Below, piece after piece: positions 20,029-56,190 of a DNA stretch of 64,000 bases. The position numbers and the translations under genes are program-made. The notes under the pieces are model-generated. The model saw only the letters and a program-made list of their open reading frames with translations. It ran no database searches and was not told where the DNA came from. Numbering within the stretch: position 1 is the first letter of the stretch; each line of letters begins with the position of its first letter. The DNA comes from an uncultured Chloroflexia bacterium. GTDB lineage: Bacteria > Chloroflexota > Anaerolineae > CG2-30-64-16. The stretch lies in NCBI GenBank assembly GCA_963774265.1, contig CAVZDU010000005.1, positions 384,001 through 448,000 on the forward strand, given 5' to 3'.

Positions 20029-23000
20029 ATGCCTGACGACCACTACGACCTCGATCTGACTCCCGGCGACATCGGTCGGTTAGAGAACCGTGAGGCGCTG
20101 ATCGCGCTCTTTGCGCGACTGGGCTACAACGTCGACGATGCGGCGAAGACGCCGCACAGCAGCCTGGGCCTGGACGCGGAGGACCTGAAGCACCAGGTGC
20201 ACTCCATCTACCGCCTCGCCGCGGACCCGGAGGATGGCGAGATTGTCATCTACCTCTACGAAGTGCGCTCAGTCACCAAAGCGCTCATCGACGCGGTCAG
20301 CCGGCCGTTCGGCAGCCGGGGCGGCTCACCCCTGCTGGTTCTGACCCACGATTACGAGCAGCTCGATTTCGTCCTGGTGCTGCCCCAGAAACGGACCCCG
20401 GGCCGCGATGGCGTGGTGCGCTATGGCGTTGAAACCCGGAGCATCAAGGTCGACCGGCGAAAGGTGTCGACCGTGCACCTGCGCGTGCTCAAACGGTTTA
20501 CCTTTACCGAGGCCGAAAGCGACCAGCAGTGGGACAAGCTCGTCGCCGCGTTCACCTACGCGGCCACCGCGGGCGAGTTCTTCAACAACCGTGCGCTCTT
20601 CTCCGATTACTACCTGACCCACCGCCTGACCGACCGGCAACTGACCCCCGAATGGCAGGAGGAAGACCAGGCGCGCTACCTCGCGCGAGCGGCCAGCCGG
20701 CTGCTGGTCAACGCGCGGGTCGCGACTGGCCAACCAGCCTCAGTCCGTCATCCGGCGTGAGCTTTTCGAGCCGCTCTTCAAGGATCTACGCCTGAAGCCG
20801 GAGGCACCGCCCAGGAACGCCGCGACGGCCAGGCAGGCTCAGCCCGACTACCTGCTCTTCGACCCCGATGACCGGACCGCCGCGCTGGCGGCCGCGCTCA
20901 TCTATCCCTGGGATCGCAACCTCGACGACGCGGACCGCCAGCGCGACCCCGAGCGGGGGGACGAGATCCCCGGCGCGCGTGTGGTCAGCGTGCTGGCCGA
21001 AGGGGGCGTCAACTGGGCGATCGTCACCAACGGCAAGGCCTGGCGGCTCTATGCGGCCAACGCGGACAACCGCGCGACCAACTACTACGAGATCGACCTG
21101 GAAGAAGCGTTGGCCTCGGTCGACCACCTGACCGCTACCAAATACTGGTGGCTCTTCTTCCGCCGCGAGGCGTTCACCGGGTTTCTCGACCGCATGCTGA
21201 AGGGGTCGGCCGAGTACGCCAAGGGGCTACGCGAGCGCTTGAAGGACCGCGTCTTCGAGGATGTCTTTGCGGCCTTCGCCGAGGGGTTCATCCTGTACGG
21301 CCGCGCGCGGGGCGCCGAACCATCCCTCGATGACGCGTTCGGCGGCACGATGACCTTCCTGTACCGGCTGATGTTCATCCTTTATGCGGAGAGCCTGGGG
21401 CTGCTGCCCGAATATGAAGCGCGCGGCTACGGCGAAAAGAGCATGGGGCGGCTCAAGCATGAAATCGCCCTCGCGGGGGGCGATGTGGAGGATGAAGCGC
21501 CTGCCCGGCTGGCCGCGGCGTATCGCGCCGACAACACGGATCTGTACCGGCGGCTCAGCGAGCTCTTCACCGCGGTCGACCAGGGCGACGCGGGCCTCAA
21601 CCTGCCGCGTTACAACGGCGGCCTGTTCAGCAAGACCACGCCTGCGGGCCAGTTCCTGGCGAGCCACGCCATCCCGGACCGCTACCTGGCGCTCGGTCTC
21701 GACCGGCTGTGCCGCGACCTGGACGACAAGACCCACGCCCTGGTCATGGTCGACTACAAGACGCTGGGCGTGCGCGAGCTCGGCTCGATCTACGAAGGGC
21801 TGCTCGAATTCAAGCTGCGAATCGCGGGGGAGCCGCTCGCGGTCGTGCGCGAGGGCGGCAATGAGGTTTACTTGCCGCTCGAAAAGGCCAAGGGCAAACG
21901 CGTGCGTCGCGGCGAAGGCTATCGGCGACGTCTACCTCGAGAACGATAAGCGGGAGCGCAAGGCCAGCGGCTCGTATTACACGCCCGACTACATCGTCAA
22001 GTACATCGTGGCGCACACCGTGGGCCCGGTGCTCCAACGCAAGTTCGAGGGGTTGCGCCCGCAGCTCGACGACGCACAGCGGAAGTATCGCAATCATAAG
22101 AAGAATGTGCTCGCGAGCGGCAATCTGCAGCCGCCTGAGCTCTTCTGGAAGAATGACGCCATGGCCCGGCTGGCGGACGACTGCCTGGACATCAAGGTGC
22201 TCGATCCGGCCATGGGCAGCGGCCATTTCCTCGTCGAGGCGGTCGATTTCGTCTCCAACCAACTGATCGACTTCCTGAACGGCTGGAGCGAGAACCCGGT
22301 GTGGGGGCTGCTGGCCCGCACGCAGGAGGACATCCTGGCCGACATGGTGCGCCAGGAGGTGACCATCGATCGGCGCAAGCTGACGCGCGTCAACCTGCTC
22401 AAGCGCGCGGTGCTCAAGCGCGGCATCTACGGCGTCGACCTGAACGAGATGGCCGTGGAGCTGGCCAAGCTGTCGCTGTGGCTGGATGCGTTCACGCTGG
22501 GCGCTCCGCTGAGCTTTTTGGATCACCACCTGAAGAACGGCAACAGCCTGATCGGCGTGCGTATCAAAGAGGTGGAGGACGCGCTCGAGGCGGCCGAAGC
22601 CGAGCAGTTGGGGCTGCTGGAGCAGAGCCAATTCGCGGGCGTGATGCTGGCGACCGACCTGATGCGGCAGGTGGGCTATCTCAGCGATAACACGGTGAGT
22701 CAGTTGGAAGAGAGCCGGCGGCAGTATGAGCAGGCCGTCGCCCACCTTGCGCCTTACAAACGCATGTTGGACGTGTACACGTCGCGCTGGTTCGGCAACC
22801 ACCCGAATCTGGGGAAGGCCAAGGCGTTCGACCCGACGATCGCGTTCCTGAAACGTGACGACGCGGTTGACTGGTTGAACGATCCGACGAAAGCCTTCCC
22901 CGAGAGAGACTACATGGACGCGCGGGGCGTGGCAGCGACCGCGCTGGCCGCGGCAAAGGGAAAACGCTTCTTTCATTGGGAGCTGGAGTTCCCGGAGGTG

Positions 23001-25188
23001 TTTTTCGCCGCGAGCACGCCAGGCGGGCAGGACATCGATCTACGCGAGGGCGCGGGGTTCGACGCGGTGGTGGGGAATCCGCCGTATGCAGAGCTTTCGG
23101 AACTCGATGCTGGTCGTTCTTTACCTGAGAAGGATTTTTTTAACTCGTACCCAGGATTCGGATCCGCACAAGAATCCGAAGGCCGACTCAACTGGTATCA
23201 CTACTTCATGGTTCAAGGCCTCAATCTGGCAAGACATGCTGGCCTATGCAGCTTCATTGTACCGATGTCTTGGATGGGGGACAGCTTCACCGTCGGTGTG
23301 CGAAGATGGATGCTCCGCGAGCACACACCGCTTCGCGTTGAAGCCTTTCCTCAGAAGGACGATCCGAGAGATCGAGTCTTTTATGAAGCCAAACTGCCTA
23401 CAAGTATCTTCGTCTCGCAAAAGGGCATCGTGCAGGCAGAGCTGCGGGTTCGAGTGCACCCAGGACGTTTGATTCTTCCGAGTCCACATTATGAAGCTAA
23501 TCTCAGTGCAATCATGGCTTTAAGCCCCAATTCCTGGCTGATCCCTCTCGTTACTCCGGACGAATGGCGAATATTATCCCGGCTTGCTCAGGATTCGAAC
23601 CTTGGTCGCCTTGACGCCCACGGAGCAGTCCCCACATCCGGGGAAATCATCTTTAATGCCGCCACACGTCCGTACATGACCTCCGACAGTCACTATGATC
23701 TGATCTTGAGGGGTAGTCACGTCCAACGCTACGAACTCGTTGAAAAGGCGAAGCAAGGGGTTCCTGAATACTTGAACACGGCCGCATACCTGGCGCAAGC
23801 AGGTACAGACTCTAAGGCTTTTGCTTTCAAACACCCTCGAATCGTGTATCAAGAAGGATCTGCTATCGATGCCTGGCGACGTGTAGTGCCCACATATCTC
23901 CCAGCGGGGGCGATTTGCGGTCACAAAATCTGCTACTTCACCGATTACAAGATAGACATGTTCGCCTTCTTGGCGATTTATGCCAGCAACTTCGTGAATT
24001 GGCTCGTTGAGAAACTGAGCGTAACGAACAGTCTTCCGGCTTACCTCATCGGCAGTCTCCCCTTTCCGATTCTCAACAAGCCGGTGAATGAAGAGCACGA
24101 AGAACTATCACAGGAAAACTTGGCTCGTTTGGCTCACCGAATGCTCGACCTCAACAAACGCCGCGCCGTCGAGACCAAGCGTTTCCTCACCTGGCTCGAA
24201 TCGCGCCTCCACATCAAACTGGACAAGGACGGCGCGACCGGCATCGACTCACTGGCGGGCAAGTCCATCCTCCAGAACTACCTGGGCGATTACCAGAAGG
24301 GCGAGCGGGAGCGGACGTGGGATGAGTTCTACGGCCGCCTCTTTCAGAATCGCCGGCGCTTCGGCGTGGTCCTGGCGGACGTCAGGGGCGAGATCGAAGC
24401 TGAGTACGAGAAGTCGCTGGCGGTGCTGCAGCCGATCAAGCAGCAGCTTGCGGCCACCGACAACCTGATCGACAAGATCGTCTATCGGCTCTACGGCCTG
24501 ACCGAGGAGGAGATCGCGATCATCGAGGGGCCCGCGTTCGAGCAGGCACAGGCCGACGCGAAGGCGGCGGTGGTCGGGGACAAAGAGCTGCAGGCCGACC
24601 CGGACAAGGCCCTTGCAGAGATGGCCGACCGGGTGCGCGCTGGCGGGCGAGCGGGTGGTCAATCAGCTCTCGCTGGCAGAAGAGCGCAGGCTGCTCGATG
24701 CGGCGCTGCCCGGGTGGAACCTCTTTCCCGACGACGTCGCCAAGGCGCTGCTCACGGGCGAATATTCGATCCGCAGCATGCCCGATGGCCTGGACTTCTC
24801 CGGGACGGTTGTGGAGTACGGCAAGGCAGTGGAGGCCGCGATCTATCATCGCATCTTCCTGCGCTTTCGCGCGGAGGCCGGGTGCACCGCGGATGATGTC
24901 CAAAACGAAGAGGTGTTCAAGCCGTTCATGGGGAACCCGGATAAGAAGATCACGCTCGGCAGCTTCACCATGCTGTTCAGTTCCAAGGAGAAGGCGTTGC
25001 ACGCGTTCGTCCGTCGCATCTACCCGCGCGTGGATGAAGTGATCTACGGGAAGGCGGGGGTGCTCAAGCTGTTGAGCGATCAGGCGAATATCGATCTGCG
25101 CAACGCGGCCGCGCACGACAAGGTGCTCGACCGCGAGGCGGCGAAAGCCGTGCGTGCGTGGGCGTTTGCGGTGCTGCGGAATCTGTAG
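20029..25188 (+). CDS. Type IIG/Eco57I-like N6-adenine DNA methyltransferase with TRD and C-terminal HEPN-like domain; split by several frameshifts
   Basis: FLYRLMFILYAE, YNGGLF, LGSIYEGLL, SGSYYTP, motif I VLDPAMGSGHFL, motif IV VVGNPPY; tail DFSGTVVEYGKAVE..RNAAAH; frame breaks near 20720-20840, 21910 and 24640; TATAAT at 19984. Confidence 0.82.
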
Positions 25189-25200
25189 AGGTGCGGACTT

Positions 25201-25232
25201 AGGTGCCCGGCACTTCGAAGTGCCGGGCACCT
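25201..25232. repeat. Perfect 32-bp palindromic REP-like element
   Basis: AGGTGCCCGGCACTTC-GAAGTGCCGGGCACCT. Confidence 0.75.
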
Positions 25233-25256
25233 GGCGGGGCACCTGACCGAAGCGCA

Positions 25257-25307
25257 TTGACACGCCTGGCCGGCAGTGCTACAATGTGACCACATGAAGT
25301 GGTCACA
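25257..25307 (+). promoter_or_regulatory. TA promoter with autoregulatory operator
   Basis: TTGACA-N17-TACAAT; inverted repeat TGTGACCAC-atgaa-GTGGTCACA at 25285-25307. Confidence 0.8.
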
Positions 25308-25324
25308 AAGGGACGAGGTGTATC

Positions 25325-25591
25325 ATGCCGGAGATTGGCATTCGTGAATTGAAGAGCCAGGCATCAGAAATCGTGCGCGCGGTGCGCGAAGGCCGGGTGG
25401 AGTATGTGATCACCCACCGCGGCCGGCCGGTTGCGATGATCGTGCCGTTCGAGGAAGCATCGGAAGAGACAATGCGGTCTCATGAGGCGTTTTGGGACGA
25501 GATGGACGCGTTGGCGGATGAGTTGGCCGCAACATGGGACGCTGAGAAGAGCCCGTTGGAATACTTCTTTGAGCAGAGGCGCCAGTCGTGA
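25325..25591 (+). CDS. Phd/YefM family antitoxin
   Basis: IGIRELK..ASEIVRAV..ITHRGRPVA; acidic C-terminus. Confidence 0.9.
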   Translation: MPEIGIRELKSQASEIVRAVREGRVEYVITHRGRPVAMIVPFEEASEETMRSHEAFWDEMDALADELAATWDAEKSPLEYFFEQRRQS

Positions 25592-26035
25592 TTCCTTCGA
25601 TCATCGTACTCGATCCCAGTGTCCTCGTTGCCTCGGTCAGCCAGATGGAAGATGGGCACCAGAGTGCGAGAGTACTTATGCGCCAACTGGCAGCAAGCCC
25701 GATGCAGATCTTGATGCCAGTGATTGGATTGCCGGAGCTAGCCTCCGGTCTTGGTCGCGGCCGGCGGTCGCAACCTACCGCGTTCAAGTTGCTCTCGCGT
25801 TTCAGGGAAACACCCAACCTGCACTTGCGGCCTGTGCTGGAGTCGCTGGCTGATGTCGCTGCAGAGTTGGCGCTGAGCCACAGAATCAAAGGTTGCGACG
25901 CTATTTACGTGGCATTAGCGCGCGAAATGCAGATTCCACTCATCACGCTCGATCAAGAGCAAGCGAGGCCGCGCGCCTGTGGAGGTTATAGTCCTGACGC
26001 CCGAACAGGCCCTGGCGGAGTGGTTAGCAACGTGA
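25588..26035 (+). CDS. vapC: VapC/PIN-domain toxin (1-nt frameshift near 25968)
   Basis: IVLDPSVLV, E in LPELAS, DAIYVALA, LITLD; shifted frame gives APVEVIVLTPEQALAEWLAT* ending in a GTGA overlap with the next gene. Confidence 0.82.
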
Positions 26036-29000
26036 AGCGCATCCCTTACGTCATCGACAACATCTCGGTCACGCTGGCCGACGTGCTGAACCAGCTTATT
26101 GCGGAGCAGGGCGGCCGGCAGTTAGATATCGCCACGGCCTACTTCAGCGTGCGCGGGTGGGCGCTGCTGCGGGATAATCTGCGGTCGGTGCGCCATTTCC
26201 GCCTGCTGCTGGGCGATCAACCTGCGGCGGGCGACGACATCGGATTGGGACCCGACTCCGCCGCATATCTCCGTCACGAGTTGAACGCGGAGCCGCTGAG
26301 CGAGGCGACGCGGCGGCTGGTGGAGGAGTTGGTGCGCTTCCTGCACCGCGAGAGTGTGGAGGTGCGGCTGTATTTGGGGTATGAGCCCGGGGAAAACGAG
26401 CGGCGGCGTTTCCTGCACGCCAAGTGCTACCTGCTGTACGGCGATACACATGGCCGGACGTCGCTCATCACGCACCTGAACCCCCTGATCGGCATCGTGG
26501 GGTCGAGCAATTTCACCGCGCCCGGCCTCGTTTCCAACCGCGAGCTCAACCTGGTGCACAAGACGCTGCTCGCGCCCGACGAGGTGGAGGACCCGCTGGC
26601 GGCCGCGGCCGTGACTCGCCAGGGCCAGCACCGCGTCGATGGACACGTGCTGCCCGAAAACCGGCAACTGATGAAGAGCGAAGTCGGTGCGCGCGCCATC
26701 CTCGATCTGGTCGAGTGGTACGACGACCAGTGGCGGCTGGCGGAGGATTTCAAGGATCGGCTGATCGAGATGCTGGAGAACTCGAAGTTCGGCGGCCGGG
26801 AGTACACCCCGTACGAGATCTACATGAAGGCGCTCTTCGAGTACTTCCGCGATGACCTGGAAGGCGAGGCGCCGCAGGCCGCGACCCGTTCGGCCGTGGA
26901 GCTGTCGGAGTTTCAGGACGATGCGGTCAAGAAGGCGCGGCGCATCCTGGCGCGCTACGATGGCGTCCTGGTCGCGGACTCGGTGGGGCTGGGCAAGACG
27001 TGGATCGGCAAGAAGCTGCTGGAGGATTTCGCCTATCATCAGCGGCAGAAGGCGCTCGTCATCTGCCCCGCGTCACTGCGTCTCATGTGGGAGCACGAGC
27101 TGCAGTCGGCCACGATCTCGGCAGCCGTTCTCTCGCAGGAAGAGCTCGGCCAGGAGGACTTCGATCTGCGGCGGCTGGCCGACGTGGATGTCGTGCTGGT
27201 CGACGAGGCGCACAACTTCCGAAACCGGCGCACCGCGCGCTATGCAGCCCTTGAGCAGTTGCTGGCCCTCAACGGCCGCCGGGGGCGGAGCGGGGGCCGT
27301 AAGAAGCTGATCCTGCTGACTGCCACGCCGATCAACAACAACATCTTCGACCTCTACAACCAGATCAACCTGTTTGCAGGCAACGACCGGACCTACTTCG
27401 CGAGCGCGGGCATCGGCGATCTGTACAAGTATTTCCTGGCCGCCCGGCGCGATTCGATCGAGCAGGGCAGCGTGCGCATCTTCAACCTGCTCGAAGAAGT
27501 CGTCGTCCGCCGCACGCGCCAGTTCATCCGCAAGGCCTATCCCGAGGCGACCATCGGCGGCAAGCGCATCCACTGGCCCGAGCGGCGGCTGCGCACGGTA
27601 CGCTACGACCTGGAGGCGACTTACGAGGGGCTCTATCGGGAGGTCGTGCCGCGATATCGAGGCGCTGCACCTGCCGCACTACAACCTGGAGTCGTACAAG
27701 GCGGATCAGCAGAAACAGGATGACTTCGAGCTGGGTCGGCAGGAGGCGCTGGTCGGCATCTTCAAGAGCCGGTTCCTAAAGCGACTCGAGTCGAGCATCG
27801 ACGCGTTTCGCATCTCGATCCGTCGCGCGCTGGAGTTCGTCAAGACGTTTGACGAATACGTGCAGGAAGGCGTTATCCTGGACGCCGCCTCGTTCCAGGC
27901 CGCCATGCGGTTGGTCGCTGCAGATGAGGAAGACGCTGATGGCGGCTCGAACGGCCACGTGCCCGGCTCGCAGGCCGAGCGGATCGATGAAGTCGCCGAA
28001 GCGCGGGCCATCATCGAGAGCCTCCCGCGGCTCGACCCCACGAAATACGACCGCCGGCAGCTGCACCGCGACCTGACCAGCGACATCGAGACGCTCGACC
28101 GACATCTGGTACAAGGTCCGCGACATCACCTACGTAGCAAGACGACAAGCTGGCCGCGTTCAAGGCGCTGCTCCAGGCGGAGCTGCGCAGGGCAAGAAAG
28201 TGCTGGTCTTCACCTACTACAAGGACACGGCGCGTTATCTCTATCGCGCGCTGACCGACGGCGGAGAGGCGCGGCTGGCGCGAGGCCGCGGGCGATCCGC
28301 ACGATCCGCCGCATCGACAGCGGCGCCGATCCGACGGGACCGGGTGCGGCTGATCGAGGCGTTCGCGCCACGTGCCAACAACCGGCCGGAGCTCGCGGGC
28401 AGCGACCGGGAGATCGACATCCTGATCTCGACCGACGTGCTCTCCGAAGGCCAGAACCTGCAGGACTGCGGCTACCTGCTCAACTACGACCTGCACTGGA
28501 ACCCGACGCGCATGGTGCAGCGCGCCGGGCCGCATCGATCGCCTCGGGCCCGAATTCGACACGCTCTCGATCTACAACATGTTCCCCGAGGAGGGGCTGG
28601 AGGACCTGCTCGGTCTCGTCGCGCAGCCTGACGGCCAAGATCGACGTGATCAACCAGACCGGCTTCCTCGATGCCAGCGTGCTGGGCGAGGTGGTCACCC
28701 CGCGCGACTTCAACACGCTCCGCCGCATCGCGGAGGAGGACAACACGGTGATCGAGGAGCAGGAATCTTTCCTCGAGCTGGCGAGCAGCGAAGCCATGCT
28801 GGCCGAGTTGCAGCGGGTGCTGGCGACCGAGGCCGCGCGTTGGGTGACCGACCTGGACGATGGGATTCATTCAGGGCTCGCGCCGGGAAGGTGCGCGGGG
28901 TGTCTTCTTCTATTTCAAGGCCCGCCGCGGCAACGGCAGCACATCCCACTTCTGGCGTTACTACGATCTGCGGCGACGAGAGATCATCGACAACCGCTAT

Positions 29001-32038: not shown

Positions 32039-33124
32039 TCAGTCGGGTCTAAGCCTGATCAAGACCGGCAGGTAGCCCCTCCGTGCTGGCATCGGAACCT
32101 GTTCGACTGGAACTGCCAAATGCGCGGCAATCGCTGTCGTGGCCTTCACCTGCTCCAGCCAGTAGTCGAGATTCATATGGGCAATCGTGTCTTCTGAGGT
32201 GTGGTCGTAGGGAGTTCGTTCGTTCTCGTAGCTCTCGATCTGCAGCCCCGTCGGTATGCCCTTCTCACGGAAGGGGAGCTCGTCCCCTCAGCCGCAGCCG
32301 ACAACGAGCCTGGGCGCCAGGTCAAGTCGATAGGCCTTGATTGTCTCACTCATCATCTCTGTCACGACTGTGGATTGCGGACGCCCTCCGTGCCAAAGCT
32401 CCATGACGCCATCGCGGTTGCCGTCATAGCCAACCACGTCGATATCTACGGCAACCTTGATGGCGTCTATTTCTGACGGCGAGAGCTGATCGAGATAACT
32501 CCGGACTCCAAGCTTACCTTGCTCTTCTCCCGTCGAGAACAGCAGAACCACCGTACGGCTGAATTGTTGGCTGCTGAGAATCCTCGCCACCTCCAGCAGA
32601 TCAACTGCGCCACTGGCGTTGTCATCCGCGGCAGGAAACCGTTCTTTGGCGTTTGGCCTGACGCCATCGACATGAGCGACAAGGTAGACCTCCTCGGCCG
32701 GAGCACGGGATCCCGGTTTCCTGGCGATCACGTTGCGATCAGAACGTCCGGAACGAGACCAATTCTTAAGCTCAACCGAGTAACCCAGGCTGACAAGCTC
32801 TTTGGCAATATAGTCAGTTGCCCGTTTGAGCCCCTCACTGCCGGTCAGCCGATTGGTGATCGTATAGCAGTCGGTCCCGGCACAGATGGGCTCTTCACCG
32901 GTCAGCCGGCGGAGATCGCGCAGGGCTCTGGCCCGGTCGACTTGTCCCAGCATCTCTCGTACAACCCCGGTGGGCGAAATGACCGTTGCCCGGCTCGATT
33001 CCGGGAGAGAGACCGGCTGCGCCTCTCGATCCCGCGTTTGCAGTCCGCAGGCCGACGCGATCGCAACCGAGAAAGCCAGGCCCAAGAGAATAGTGACGCA
33101 GAGGGCCAATATTCCTTTTCTCAT
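32039..33124 (-). CDS. Secreted M28 metallopeptidase with in-frame UGA at 32288-32290 (candidate selenoprotein)
   Basis: AHVD, ADDNASG, GEEQG, DIDVVG before the UGA; after it, in frame, GDELPF..G.P..PYDHTSEDT and a RRGYLPVLIR tail. Confidence 0.8.
32259..32290 (-). other. Putative bacterial SECIS hairpin
   Basis: UGA-GGGGACGAGCUC-CCCUUC-CGUGA-GAAGGG: 6-bp stem from +13, GU-containing loop at +19 to +23. Confidence 0.5.
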
Positions 33125-33156: not shown

Positions 33157-33792
33157 TTATGCGAGCGATGTGACGGTCGCGTCATGCAGGCTGTAGCGCA
33201 TTCCCACCACCTGCAAACCGCCGTGGCTGATTGCTTCGGCCAACACCGGCTCACCTTTGAGGCGGGCCACGGTCTCGACGATGTGCGCGTCGATGACATT
33301 TGCCACCGGGTCGCCGTCCTGCCCGCGCACCTTCTCCAGCGCAGGGCGGATGCAGCTCATGATGTTCGGAAGATGGCCCTGGGCAGGCGCGTTGGGAGCC
33401 GTCGCCGCGTAACTGGCCACTGTGGCGGTGACCGCGCCGCACTTCTCGTGGCCCAGGACAACGATCAACTGCACGCCGAGGTGCTCGACCGCATATTCCA
33501 GGCTGCCCAAGCTGATATCGTCGAGCACGTTGCCCGCGTTGCGGACGACGAACAGCTCTCCGAGGCCCCGGTCGAAGATGATCTCGGGCGGAACGCGCGA
33601 ATCGGAGCAACAGAGGATCGCAGCAAAGGGGTGCTGCGCCTGCAGCAACTCCTGAGCGCATCCGGATTGCACTGCGCTGCTGAAGCAGCTGTCACGGAAG
33701 GATTGGTTGCCGGCGTGCAAGCGCGCAAGCGCCGCGTCAGCGGGGACGGGTGGGTGGCTGTTCGGGTGGGAGCCGTGACTCTGTGACATCAT
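33157..33792 (-). CDS. Beta-class carbonic anhydrase
   Basis: CCSDSRV, LFVVRNAGN, LEYAV, GHEKCGAV; the upstream extension in the ORF track is spurious. Confidence 0.92.
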   Translation of the reverse strand: MMSQSHGSHPNSHPPVPADAALARLHAGNQSFRDSCFSSAVQSGCAQELLQAQHPFAAILCCSDSRVPPEIIFDRGLGELFVVRNAGNVLDDISLGSLEYAVEHLGVQLIVVLGHEKCGAVTATVASYAATAPNAPAQGHLPNIMSCIRPALEKVRGQDGDPVANVIDAHIVETVARLKGEPVLAEAISHGGLQVVGMRYSLHDATVTSLA

Positions 33793-54012: not shown

Positions 54013-55038
54013 TCAGTCCGCGGTCACGGGCAGCGGGATGGTCCAGCTTGCCCCAAGGATCGGGCGGAGGCCGCGGACTTCGAGCCGGGCCTGGCTCGCG
54101 CCGCCGGATTTCCCGAACCAACCGGGATAGGGCCGGTAGATGAGTATGATCTCGCGCACGCGGTCGGGCGCCAAGAGTTCACCGCGGGATGCGCAGCAGA
54201 AGTAGACCAGGTCGCCTGCTCGACCCTGGGTATCGACGAGCTGAAAGAAGCGTTGGTCCAGGTCGAGGGCGATTGGCTGGTTGCCGGTGTTCCTTATGGC
54301 GAAGGTGAAGCTCAAGGCCGGCGTGGCGCCGTCCGTCGCGACGATCTCGCCGTACTCGAAGCGCGTCAGGCGCAGAAAATCCGTGATCGTCTCGGATGCC
54401 AGGATCCCTGGCTCGTAACGATACTCGGTCGGCGTCAGGTATTCCGGGTCGACGAACACGTAGTTCGAGACGAAGGCCACTGCGGGAAAGGGGGTTGGTC
54501 GGGCCGGCGTCCAGGTTGGCGGCGGAATGGTGGCGGTCGCAGTTGAAGGCACGAGCGTGGCGGTGGGGGATGCGGTCGCCTCGGTGCGAGCGGTCGCGCT
54601 GGGCGAGGCTTCTGCGATCGGGCCCGGTGGGGCGGTCGCCGGGCGCAGCACCAGCACCCCAATCACCGCGAGTACCAGCACGCCGGCCGCGATCGCGAGA
54701 CGCGGCCGGGGGGTCAGCATACGCCACGGCTGTGGCTGGGCCGCGATCACAAGCTCCGGCGCGGCCACAGTACTGCCCGCATGGAATGCGGCGACTGCCG
54801 CGGCCAGCTCAGCATTGTCGCCGTAGTCTTGCTGGGTGACCGTGATGACCGCGGCCACCCGATCGCGGTTCAGCGCCTCGTTCAGCACCTGGTGCCAGAC
54901 ATCGATCGCAGGGCCGTCGAAGTCGATGAAGGCCGCATCCAGGCCGGCTCCCGCGGCCACGCGCCGAGCATCGGCCTCGCGGGTGTACAGATCGGCCAGG
55001 ACGGCCTGCAAATCATTGAGTGCCGGGTCCCAGGACAT
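54013..55038 (-). CDS. EAD1-like domain + single TM + P/T stalk + extracellular beta domain
   Basis: N-term VLADLY..AGLD..IDFDG..WHQVLNEA; TM RPRLAIAAGVLVLAVIGVLVL. Confidence 0.7.
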   Translation of the reverse strand: MSWDPALNDLQAVLADLYTREADARRVAAGAGLDAAFIDFDGPAIDVWHQVLNEALNRDRVAAVITVTQQDYGDNAELAAAVAAFHAGSTVAAPELVIAAQPQPWRMLTPRPRLAIAAGVLVLAVIGVLVLRPATAPPGPIAEASPSATARTEATASPTATLVPSTATATIPPPTWTPARPTPFPAVAFVSNYVFVDPEYLTPTEYRYEPGILASETITDFLRLTRFEYGEIVATDGATPALSFTFAIRNTGNQPIALDLDQRFFQLVDTQGRAGDLVYFCCASRGELLAPDRVREIILIYRPYPGWFGKSGGASQARLEVRGLRPILGASWTIPLPVTAD

Positions 55039-55041
55039 GGG

Positions 55042-56049
55042 CTACCGCACCCCCTTGTCCGTCAGCCCCGCGATGACCACGTTGATGTGGATCCCCTGGT
55101 TGCGCATATACTTCTGGTTCGATTCCGGTTCGACCAGCCAGCCTCCCTTGTGATGCAGCGCGACGACCCGCCAATCGGTGTCGAACACTGGCGATCCCGA
55201 CGACCCTTCCAGCGTATCTGTCATGTACTGCACGCGGCGCGCATCGGCATACGCGACCACGTTGTGCGACAACGCGATCTGCTTCGGCCCGCCGCCAGGG
55301 TGCTGGACGATAATGACTTCATCGCCTTTGCGAGGGGCGCCGTCGGGGAGCGGTGCGAGCGGCAGCACACCCCACTTCGCGGCCGGATCACCCTTCACTT
55401 TGACGACGGTCCAGTCGTCGCCGCCTTGATCGTCCGTGGGCGAGGTCGCGAATACCTGATCAGGCGCCAGCTCGTAGCGATCGATGGGTTCATCGCGGCC
55501 CTCCGGCGTTTTCTGGTAGTTGAACTCTACATAAGCGGTGGCCGCGACGTCGGACGCATTGAGCACGTGGTGGTTGGTGATCAGCAGGTTGTCCGCGATC
55601 AGGAATCCGGAGCCGCTGCTGCGGTTGGCCAGGACCACGCGAGCAACCGGCCTGGAAACCTGGTAGCCGCGGAGCAGAAATCCAATCGGCCGCAGGCTGC
55701 TGACCGCGCCCGTGATCTTCTCCAACCCGGCCGCATCCGCTGGGCCGCGCCACGCGTCCTCGGTCATCTCGGGCGTGCGAACCGCCAATAGCGCATCCTG
55801 GGCGGCTAGTTGGAGCGACTGCACCTCGGGTTTCTCCTGGCGGGCCAGGTCGATGATCGCGAGCACCTTGGCGTGGTGGTCGGCCTCGGTTAGTACGCTT
55901 TGCCAGGTGTTGACCGGCCGATCGTCCCACGCGATGTACGACGGCTCCAGCCCGACGCTGGTCAGGATGCGCTCGATATCCCGGTCGCGGTAGTACAGCC
56001 GCGCGAGCAGATCGCGCAGGTTGGCCATGGTCCGATAGTCAAGGGACAT
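55042..56049 (-). CDS. EAD1-like domain + trypsin-like serine protease
   Basis: LLARLY..GL..I..WQSVLTEA; GSGFLI..ITNHHV, DWTVV, IVQHPGG, TLEGSSGSPV (His/Asp/Ser triad). Confidence 0.88.
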   Translation of the reverse strand: MSLDYRTMANLRDLLARLYYRDRDIERILTSVGLEPSYIAWDDRPVNTWQSVLTEADHHAKVLAIIDLARQEKPEVQSLQLAAQDALLAVRTPEMTEDAWRGPADAAGLEKITGAVSSLRPIGFLLRGYQVSRPVARVVLANRSSGSGFLIADNLLITNHHVLNASDVAATAYVEFNYQKTPEGRDEPIDRYELAPDQVFATSPTDDQGGDDWTVVKVKGDPAAKWGVLPLAPLPDGAPRKGDEVIIVQHPGGGPKQIALSHNVVAYADARRVQYMTDTLEGSSGSPVFDTDWRVVALHHKGGWLVEPESNQKYMRNQGIHINVVIAGLTDKGVR

Positions 56050-56117
56050 GTTTACCTCCCGGAATCCGGCATCAGACCTGTCAGCGAGGGCGGATGGTCT
56101 TCGCACACCCTGCGCAC

Positions 56118-56190
56118 AGTGTAGCATTCCGCGCGGTTAGCGTCAATAGATTTTTGTCCCATTGACACAGGCGGCTGCAGGCCGTATTAT
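56118..56190. promoter_or_regulatory. Back-to-back divergent sigma70-like promoters
   Basis: Minus: TTGACG-N17-TACACT (56146-56118); plus: TTGACA-N17-TATTAT (56162-56190). Confidence 0.68.

Follow-up and report, generated by a model that had tools for sequence, protein, structure and literature searches.

We analysed a window of 64,000 nucleotides (nt) from an uncultured Chloroflexia bacterium (GenBank assembly GCA_963774265.1, contig CAVZDU010000005.1, positions 384,001 to 448,000), the minus strand of which carries a gene for a predicted M28-family peptidase interrupted by an in-frame UGA codon (Table 1). Comparison with homologues makes it very probable that this UGA is read as selenocysteine (Sec) and that the locus is a genuine selenoprotein gene. 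The reading frame passes through ...LAPRLVVGCG to the first TGA and resumes in phase as GDELPFREKGIPTGLQIESYENERTPYDHTSEDT...RRGYLPVLIRLRPD for 82 codons (a stretch also given as GDELPFREKGIPTGLQIESYENERTPYDHTSEDT...GYLPVLIRLRPD) before a second TGA closes it, an extension that had been proposed in the initial annotation of the sequence and that translation of the minus strand confirms. The start codon is the ATG at 33124, with GGAGG 8 nt 5′ of it, and an alternative ATG lies upstream at 33157; the starts of homologues fall at the equivalent M-x-[RK] position. Residue numbers used here, including Cys288, Sec290 and His319, are counted from the ATG at 33157. The Pfam M28 model (PF04389) matches residues 142–331, spanning the internal TGA, with 100.7 bits against a cut-off of 21.3 (E 1.1e-28). 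One 151-nt contig from the soil-metagenome run X4, which is possibly the source sample, spans 32221–32359 and is identical at the TGA. No RNA run with the sequence appeared in the sequencing-run listing, and four soil-metagenome DNA runs of one study contained it in small shares only.

Table 1 Features of the candidate selenoprotein gene, in window coordinates
Feature	Coordinates	Strand	Details
Putative full read-through coding sequence, M28 peptidase selenoprotein	32042..33124	-	361 amino acids from the MRKGIL start; terminal TGA 32039-32041
Predicted C-x-U motif, Cys288-Gly289-Sec290	32288..32296	-	UGA at 32288-32290
Predicted fifth zinc ligand His319 in PYDHTSEDT	32186..32212	-	His319 at 32201-32203, 29 codons past the UGA
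Putative apical hairpin of a selenocysteine insertion sequence (SECIS)	32259..32275	-	6-bp stem and 5-nt loop; begins at nucleotide +13, that is, 12 nt after the UGA
Candidate extended SECIS with lower helix	32240..32291	-	RNAalifold consensus
Predicted four zinc ligands and general base	32438..32674	-	By alignment to the Aeromonas aminopeptidase: His162 32672-32674; Asp179 32621-32623; Glu211/Glu212 32522-32527; Asp240 32438-32440
Cys92...Cys97 pair (ICAGTDCY)	32867..32884	-	Both columns invariant in the homologue alignment
Putative N-terminal signal peptide, lipobox-like ...IASAC	33047..33124	-	Cys is residue 37 counted from 33157; by inspection
C-terminal YLPVLIR motif	32054..32074	-	Common to homologues and to many large predicted proteins of the genome

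The closest solved relative of the predicted product is the leucyl aminopeptidase of Aeromonas (Vibrio) proteolytica (1AMP/1RTQ; E 1.3e-20 pairwise and 1.1e-40 with a profile). In the phmmer alignment, His162, Asp179, Glu211/212, Asp240 and His319 fall on Aeromonas His97, Asp117, Glu151/152, Asp179 and His256, which we take to be the zinc ligands and general base of that enzyme; the 1amp residue numbers were verified by counting along the alignment. His162, Asp179, Glu211/212 and Asp240 are invariant in the family alignment and His319 is at least 90% conserved in two alignments. Two expectations of the initial annotation are borne out here, namely that a C-terminal zinc-binding His lies beyond the UGA and that the UGA stands beside the loop equivalent to the S-D-H of other M28 enzymes. 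Sec290 falls on Aeromonas Cys227 in both the pairwise and a 27-sequence profile alignment, flanked by Cys288 on Tyr225, Gly291 on Ser228, Asp292 on Asp229 and Glu293 on His230. In the Aeromonas enzyme, a Cys223–Cys227 disulfide holds a rigid loop over the dizinc site (PMC4012986). M28 relatives of about 33% identity, which are mostly longer, have G-x-S-D-H at the motif and no Cys pair, so the clade has apparently acquired C-x-U where another M28 branch has C-x3-C; the S-D-H of ordinary M28 enzymes has become G-D-[EV] in the clade. A further Cys92/Cys97 pair is specific to the clade and absent from the approximately 33%-identical relatives, and we infer that these two residues are paired. Among the models of NCBIfam release 20, LapA scores highest but, with 67.8 bits, stays below its cut-off of 600, so the protein is not an equivalog of any aminopeptidase model there. 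The read-through product is predicted to be a complete dizinc M28 aminopeptidase.

A search of 5.8 billion proteins yielded 357 relatives among 8000 scored candidates, and the UGA position is a shared feature of the closest of them. Gene calls stop at the UGA column in 117 of the 120 best protein matches; 115 of the stopped proteins end in G-C-x and the other two in C-C-G or S-C-P. The Cys that the initial annotation had noticed two residues ahead of the UGA is thus present in all 117 database proteins that stop at this column. The remaining three matches read through, with Trp at the column in P0003 and P0016 and with A-A-R-A in place of G-C-G-U in P0004. At the DNA level, 17 distinct homologous loci were compared, and every one has TGA in the column together with the Cys at −2 and the hairpin downstream. 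Thirteen of these are our locus together with L023–L034, drawn from public genomes and metagenomes at 47–75% identity over the C-terminal query, and four more (L113, L115, L116 and L117) come from a class-level search, in which L112, L114 and L118 were repeats of L025, L024 and L026 and were not counted. The joint recurrence of TGA, Cys at −2 and hairpin across 17 loci goes beyond chance.

A Cys form of the enzyme also exists. In a scan of 1.84 billion cluster representatives at 50% identity, 16 of the best 150 matches end in G-C-x, and P0124 was the sole match listed at at least 40% identity that extends beyond residue 289. At the motif P0124 reads G-C-F-C-A-D-E-V-A-F against G-C-G-U-G-D-E-L-P-F in our protein. 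P0124 and P0274 are both 358 amino acids long at 47–50% identity and share C-F-C-A-D-E at the motif, and the P0124 cluster has five members from three sources (ENA, JGI and Logan). Homologues with TGA or Cys at this column had been proposed in the initial annotation as a check on Sec, and both occur, TGA at every DNA locus and Cys in this one cluster. Two further gene calls, P0122 and P0123, start at an internal Met after the UGA (MNLDYW...) and run into Big_2/PKD-like domains, an architecture suggesting that some family members have long C-terminal extensions that annotation has split from the peptidase. Locus L026:3001-4078 (the same as L118) is frameshifted 5′ of the UGA, with tblastn pieces in different frames, the result of an indel in the assembly or of decay of the copy.

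Sequence after the UGA evolves as coding sequence. The downstream frame stays in phase and, at all loci long enough to cover it, is conserved as far as the C terminus; L033 is truncated by the end of its contig. Across 47 pairs, limited to those with unsaturated dS, the 62 codons that follow the UGA have a median ratio of non-synonymous to synonymous substitution rates (dN/dS) of 0.187, compared with 0.226 for the 225 codons that precede it. These values indicate that translation continues past the UGA and that purifying selection there is no weaker than upstream. The downstream part has no conserved start codon, and its first Met is 37 codons on, beyond the His ligand. A product ending at the UGA would be without His319 and therefore one zinc ligand short.

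Immediately downstream of the UGA lies the CCCUUC-CGUGA-GAAGGG hairpin that the initial annotation had described at +13, and it is found exactly there. Across homologues this 17-nt element reads CCCUUC-CGUGN-GAAGGG, with the loop CGUGA in our sequence; it is identical in 13 of 15 aligned sequences, and each of the other two has a single mismatch in the outermost pair. In a codon alignment of 10 genes, from which L028 was left out as a near-copy of L027, synonymous-codon identity is 1.00 at codons +5 to +9 against a mean of 0.463 over 242 columns, and the six-codon window from +4 ranks first of 265 for synonymous constraint. Codon choice within the hairpin is nearly fixed in 14 genes (CCC 13/14, TTC 14/14, CGT 13/14 with CGG in the other, GNG 14/14 and AAG 14/14), genes in which GC content at third codon positions ranges from 0.36 to 0.92 and in each of which CGT makes up only 0–21% of the Arg codons elsewhere. 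Residue +8 varies among Glu, Ala and Gly solely through the last loop nucleotide. This pattern indicates that the hairpin is constrained as RNA.

Published rules for bacterial SECIS elements, as set out in a 2026 selenoprotein catalogue (PMC13188914), call for a loop of 3–9 nt, an upper stem of 4–16 bp, a UGA-to-loop distance of 16–37 nt, a G in loop positions 1–2 followed by G or U, and an energy of −7.5 kcal/mol or lower. The conserved hairpin has a loop of 5 nt, a stem of 6 bp, a UGA-to-loop distance of 18 nt and G-U at loop positions 2–3 (G-G in L116), all within these rules. Across homologues its energy ranges from −5.5 to −9.9 kcal/mol; stretches of 45 nt reach −9.6 to −17.3 kcal/mol, with the conserved hairpin not always in the optimal fold. 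It is comparison among homologues, and not energy, that supports the hairpin. RNAalifold adds a lower helix in which the UGA and its flanks pair with CUNCAR about 45 nt downstream, and 94.3% of cells in 15 sequences can pair this way against at most 59.5% with slid partners. Covariation at pair 6–57 of this helix (C-G in 7 sequences, U-A in 6, unpaired in 2) was considered as proof of the lower stem and rated weak, since the two columns fall on third codon positions, where GC content is a confounder. In a genome-wide search, the hairpin turned up at our locus and at a single further place, where no UGA stands at the distance needed; no other gene of the genome therefore shares the element.

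The genome (5.5 Mb in 10 contigs, 84% complete) encodes the machinery for Sec insertion. The initial annotation had named the sel genes as a check, and tRNA-Sec (73.2 bits; ARAGORN call SeC(tca)), selA (506 bits), selB (293 bits, or 333 with same-frame neighbours) and selD (382 bits) are all present. In four of four other carrier genomes (L023–L026), where the search covered tRNA-Sec, selA and selB, tRNA-Sec scores 67.5–70.2 bits and selB and selA lie above their cut-offs. The selD gene (G000 C1:464620-465552, L013) itself has an in-frame TGA (...SACAG-U-ASKL...), which suggests that SelD is also a selenoprotein; the hairpin after the selD UGA differs from that of the M28 gene. The true stop codon is TGA in 6 of 12 complete family genes, our own included, so TGA is not a general sense codon. 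Elsewhere in the genome, a formate-dehydrogenase-alpha-like gene (G000 C3:234465-236391, L108/L110) gave fragmentary matches that contain TGA and TAA, and is possibly another selenoprotein with frameshifts.

According to database labels, carriers of the gene belong to Chloroflexota/Anaerolineae. Their distribution is patchy in order, class and phylum sets that are samples with many incomplete genomes: the gene was found in 3 of 37 genomes of the order and in 8 of 401 in the class sample, and our genome is the sole carrier in the phylum sample of 401 genomes. In the class sample, seven of the eight matches include the TGA and the eighth locus also shows TGA. A quick maximum-likelihood tree (41 rows selected from about 270 proteins and trimmed to the part ahead of the Sec column, with the root placed on ten approximately 35%-identical relatives) places the Sec, Cys, Trp and motif-less forms in one clade with a Shimodaira–Hasegawa-like approximate likelihood-ratio support of 99, most inner branches being below 95. 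Within the clade, the Cys form has a long branch, P0004 is the neighbour of P0017, and both Trp forms are deep among TGA forms. This topology suggests that Sec is ancestral and that Cys is derived within the clade.

Homologue TGA codons, a Cys form, the hairpin and the Sec machinery all speak for the Sec read-through that the initial annotation had proposed. Several observations weigh against it. Selenium incorporation is deduced from sequence comparison. Cys homologues come from one cluster only and are known as protein sequences. The paralogue P0004, nested in the clade, has neither Cys nor Sec at the motif, which indicates that the C-x-U motif is dispensable for at least one copy; P0004 is full-length (...LIAARAGDDGPF...), derives from the same contig set as the TGA-stopped copy P0017, and may be a recent duplicate that lost the motif. 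In our genome, selA (G000 C1:1423592-1424922, L009/L010) is split over two frames at a run of five Gs near position 1424730, where it reads ...GTGGGGGAGG... and the other frame takes up the expected V-G-G-G-S-L-P-G. The split is probably an assembly artefact in the homopolymer; a real frameshift would leave the strain unable to make Sec. The 17-nt hairpin alone has an energy of −7.3 kcal/mol, just short of the −7.5 threshold, so the SECIS-like element of the initial annotation agrees with the published rules in loop, stem, loop G-U and spacing but not in bare-hairpin energy. As a single sequence, the region folds no more stably than shuffles (z = −0.76), and the unconstrained minimum-energy fold of our sequence is a competing, unconserved hairpin. 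Because only one of the six apical pairs varies at all, no compensatory change is available to prove the pairing, and an Rfam scan of 32100–32400 with E up to 10 gave chance-level matches only and no SECIS family.

Other explanations of the UGA account for less of the evidence. The comparative data already refute the reading of the locus as a pseudogene whose TGA arose by nonsense mutation or by an error of sequencing or assembly: the assembly does have at least one probable homopolymer indel, that in selA, but the TGA recurs in 17 of 17 independent loci of different assemblies, the X4 contig is identical there, though X4 may be the source sample, and the downstream frame is intact and under selection. 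Termination at the UGA, with the 289-residue protein as the working product and the downstream frame a relic or a separate small gene, would give exactly what gene callers report in 117 of the 120 best matches. Because Sec is as a rule inserted inefficiently, some truncated chains are probably made too. Yet the 289-residue protein would be missing the fifth zinc ligand His319, the 62 downstream codons are under purifying selection (0.187 against 0.226) and in phase at all loci, and their frame has no conserved start codon, all of which makes termination a very improbable account of the gene. Reading of the UGA as an amino acid other than Sec, be it under a reassigned code or with Trp, Cys, Arg or Gly delivered by a near-cognate or suppressor tRNA, is favoured by the Trp of P0003 and P0016; however, these proteins lie on short contigs (1260 and 1617 nt) and nest deep among TGA forms, so their Trp, judged from the proteins, fits a gene call made under a table with TGA as Trp. 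TGA is moreover a real stop in 6 of 12 complete family genes, tRNA-Sec, SelA and SelB are found in all five carrier genomes examined, the genuine homologue carries Cys and not Trp at the column, and plain suppression has no use for an RNA-constrained hairpin at SECIS distance. We therefore regard non-Sec read-through as highly improbable.

On the preferred reading, SelB with Sec-tRNA(Sec) would recognize the conserved hairpin 12 nt past the UGA, Sec would be inserted as residue 290, and the ribosome would continue through the last 82 residues, the fifth zinc ligand included. Because Sec290 aligns with the disulfide residue Cys227, we put forward, as a serious possibility that stops short of a probability, a Cys288–Sec290 selenenylsulfide that staples or reversibly gates the loop over the dizinc site, a proposal taken from sequence alignment only, which also counts against it. 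A selenium–sulfur bond should be more resistant to reduction than a disulfide. Under the reducing extracellular conditions of an anaerobe it would persist or exchange fast, whereas a disulfide would not. A broader and rather doubtful suggestion is that selenium serves here as a structural and regulatory cross-link replacing a lid-loop disulfide in an extracytoplasmic lipoprotein peptidase, and not in redox catalysis, with Sec the ancestral and preferred state and the Cys and motif-less forms rare derivatives. The main alternative is that Sec is inserted but takes no part in a bridge and, staying a free selenolate above the two zinc ions, serves as a ligand for metal or substrate; the roles it might then have include an inhibitory cap like a cysteine switch, a third metal site and a nucleophile. 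The equivalent Aeromonas loop lies directly above the two zinc ions (PMC4012986), the adjacent S-D-H has changed to G-D-[EV] in the clade, and Sec may act as a metal-binding ligand in some prokaryotic selenoproteins (PMC13188914). A paired motif, however, predicts what is seen, a Cys at −2 that is invariant in 117 of 117 stopped proteins and a C-x-C kept in the Cys form, and all five canonical zinc ligands are retained, so we consider a free selenolate unlikely.

The peptidase is plausibly exported and probably lipid-anchored, to judge from its N terminus. The lipobox consensus is [LVI][ASTVI][GAS]C. By eye, most homologues carry L-[AS]-x-[AG]-C at the N terminus, a few being anchored by an uncleaved hydrophobic segment in its place; our protein reads ...AIASAC, and the Cys is absent in some homologues. 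At the other end, the tag [YF]LP[LVIMF][ILVM] occurs in the last 12 residues of 22 of the genome's 12516 open frames of at least 150 amino acids, against about 2.5 expected. In most cases R or K and then the stop codon come next, many of the tagged frames exceed 1000 amino acids, and besides the one in the window they lie on G000 C2, C3, C5, C6 and C9. The same tag ends Chloroflexota M28 proteins of other architecture, and it looks like a lineage-specific sorting or anchoring signal.

Gene neighbourhoods offer a hint of function. FemAB/Acetyltransf_6 genes lie within 3 kb in four of eight related loci examined. Near L023, L024, L025, L026 and L031 we also observed genes for a DegT/DnrJ aminotransferase, PALP, a PglD-like acetyltransferase, ATP-grasp, a glycosyltransferase, UDP-GlcNAc 2-epimerase and UDP-glucose dehydrogenase, flanks that look like a surface glycan or glycopeptide cluster. 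These surroundings hint at a role for the peptidase in cell-envelope glycopeptide processing. Around our gene, the window contains no such glycan-cluster neighbours; the genes there encode an aldehyde:ferredoxin oxidoreductase, a beta-carbonic anhydrase, a YgjP-like peptidase and a GH42 galactosidase and suggest no functional link. Farther away in the window, an Eco57I-type restriction-modification methylase (1170 amino acids) is followed by a 711-amino-acid frame with PIN, PLD-like and SNF2-related domains (21384–27723, plus strand), which looks like a defence island, and two adjacent EAD1 (Effector-associated domain 1) genes, one fused to a trypsin-like peptidase domain, lie at 54016–56127 on the minus strand.

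We found no earlier description of such a protein in the sources consulted. Table 1 of the 2026 catalogue, with 119 prokaryotic selenoprotein families and subfamilies, includes no M28 and no other peptidase (PMC13188914), which agrees with the view in the initial annotation that a peptidase would be unusual among selenoproteins. No peptidase or M28 selenoprotein appears in the BSepDB paper and the part of its supplement that was available, a listing in BSepDB itself being possible, or in the main text of the Haft and Gwadz preprint. The main text of the deep-Sep paper has none, and its three supplementary files have only a trypsin-like serine protease. A full-text literature search returned no paper on an M28 or aminopeptidase selenoprotein, and NCBIfam release 20 has no dedicated model for the family. 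This is apparently an undescribed selenoprotein family that uses the ordinary bacterial decoding mechanism.

Selenoproteins are overwhelmingly thiol-type oxidoreductases. If the reading of the UGA as Sec is correct, a metal-dependent peptidase would join this mostly redox list, with Sec in the place of a structural-disulfide Cys adjoining the dizinc centre of a hydrolase. The Sec form is also commoner than the Cys form, which is unusual. The family would offer a natural system in which to ask what selenium gives over sulfur outside redox catalysis and, if the selenenylsulfide proposal holds, a bridge that stays closed or switches fast at potentials where disulfides break, in anaerobic Chloroflexota. 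At least 117 database entries end at the UGA without a zinc ligand and so need re-annotation, for which the invariant 17-nt hairpin provides a simple handle to find mis-annotated members.

Parallels can be drawn with four known systems. Mammalian thioredoxin reductase ends in G-C-U-G, a Gly-flanked Cys/Sec pair that forms a selenenylsulfide. There, Cys and Sec are adjacent on a flexible tail and serve electron transfer, whereas the predicted C-G-U of the peptidase belongs to the active-site loop of a hydrolase. UshA enzymes are exported hydrolases with a dinuclear metal centre. The UshA-like selenoprotein NF041198 has a C-x-U motif, as here (Table 1 of PMC13188914); it is a metallophosphoesterase and not a peptidase, there is no sequence relation, and our protein (P0001) does not match its NCBIfam model. 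Sec-containing trypsin-like serine and MucD-like proteases from the Global Ocean Sampling metagenome are likewise secreted hydrolases in which Sec is predicted to replace a conserved Cys, a prediction made from UGA conservation, Cys homologues and bacterial SECIS elements (PMC2398784). Unlike the M28 family, they are of the serine type, with an unrelated fold and no metal site, and the same report counts 9 Sec forms against 128 Cys forms (PMC2398784), whereas the M28 family is dominated by the predicted Sec form, 117 of its 120 best matches stopping at the UGA. The Aeromonas enzyme is the nearest counterpart, alike in the five zinc ligands, the general base and a Cys-type residue at the loop column. 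In place of its C-x3-C disulfide (PMC4012986), the peptidase described here has C-x-U, with the partner Cys at the Tyr225 column. It would further differ in having selenium for sulfur, Glu or Val for His230 and G-D-E for S-D-H, together with an extra Cys92/Cys97 pair, a lipobox-like N terminus and a YLPxI C-terminal tag.

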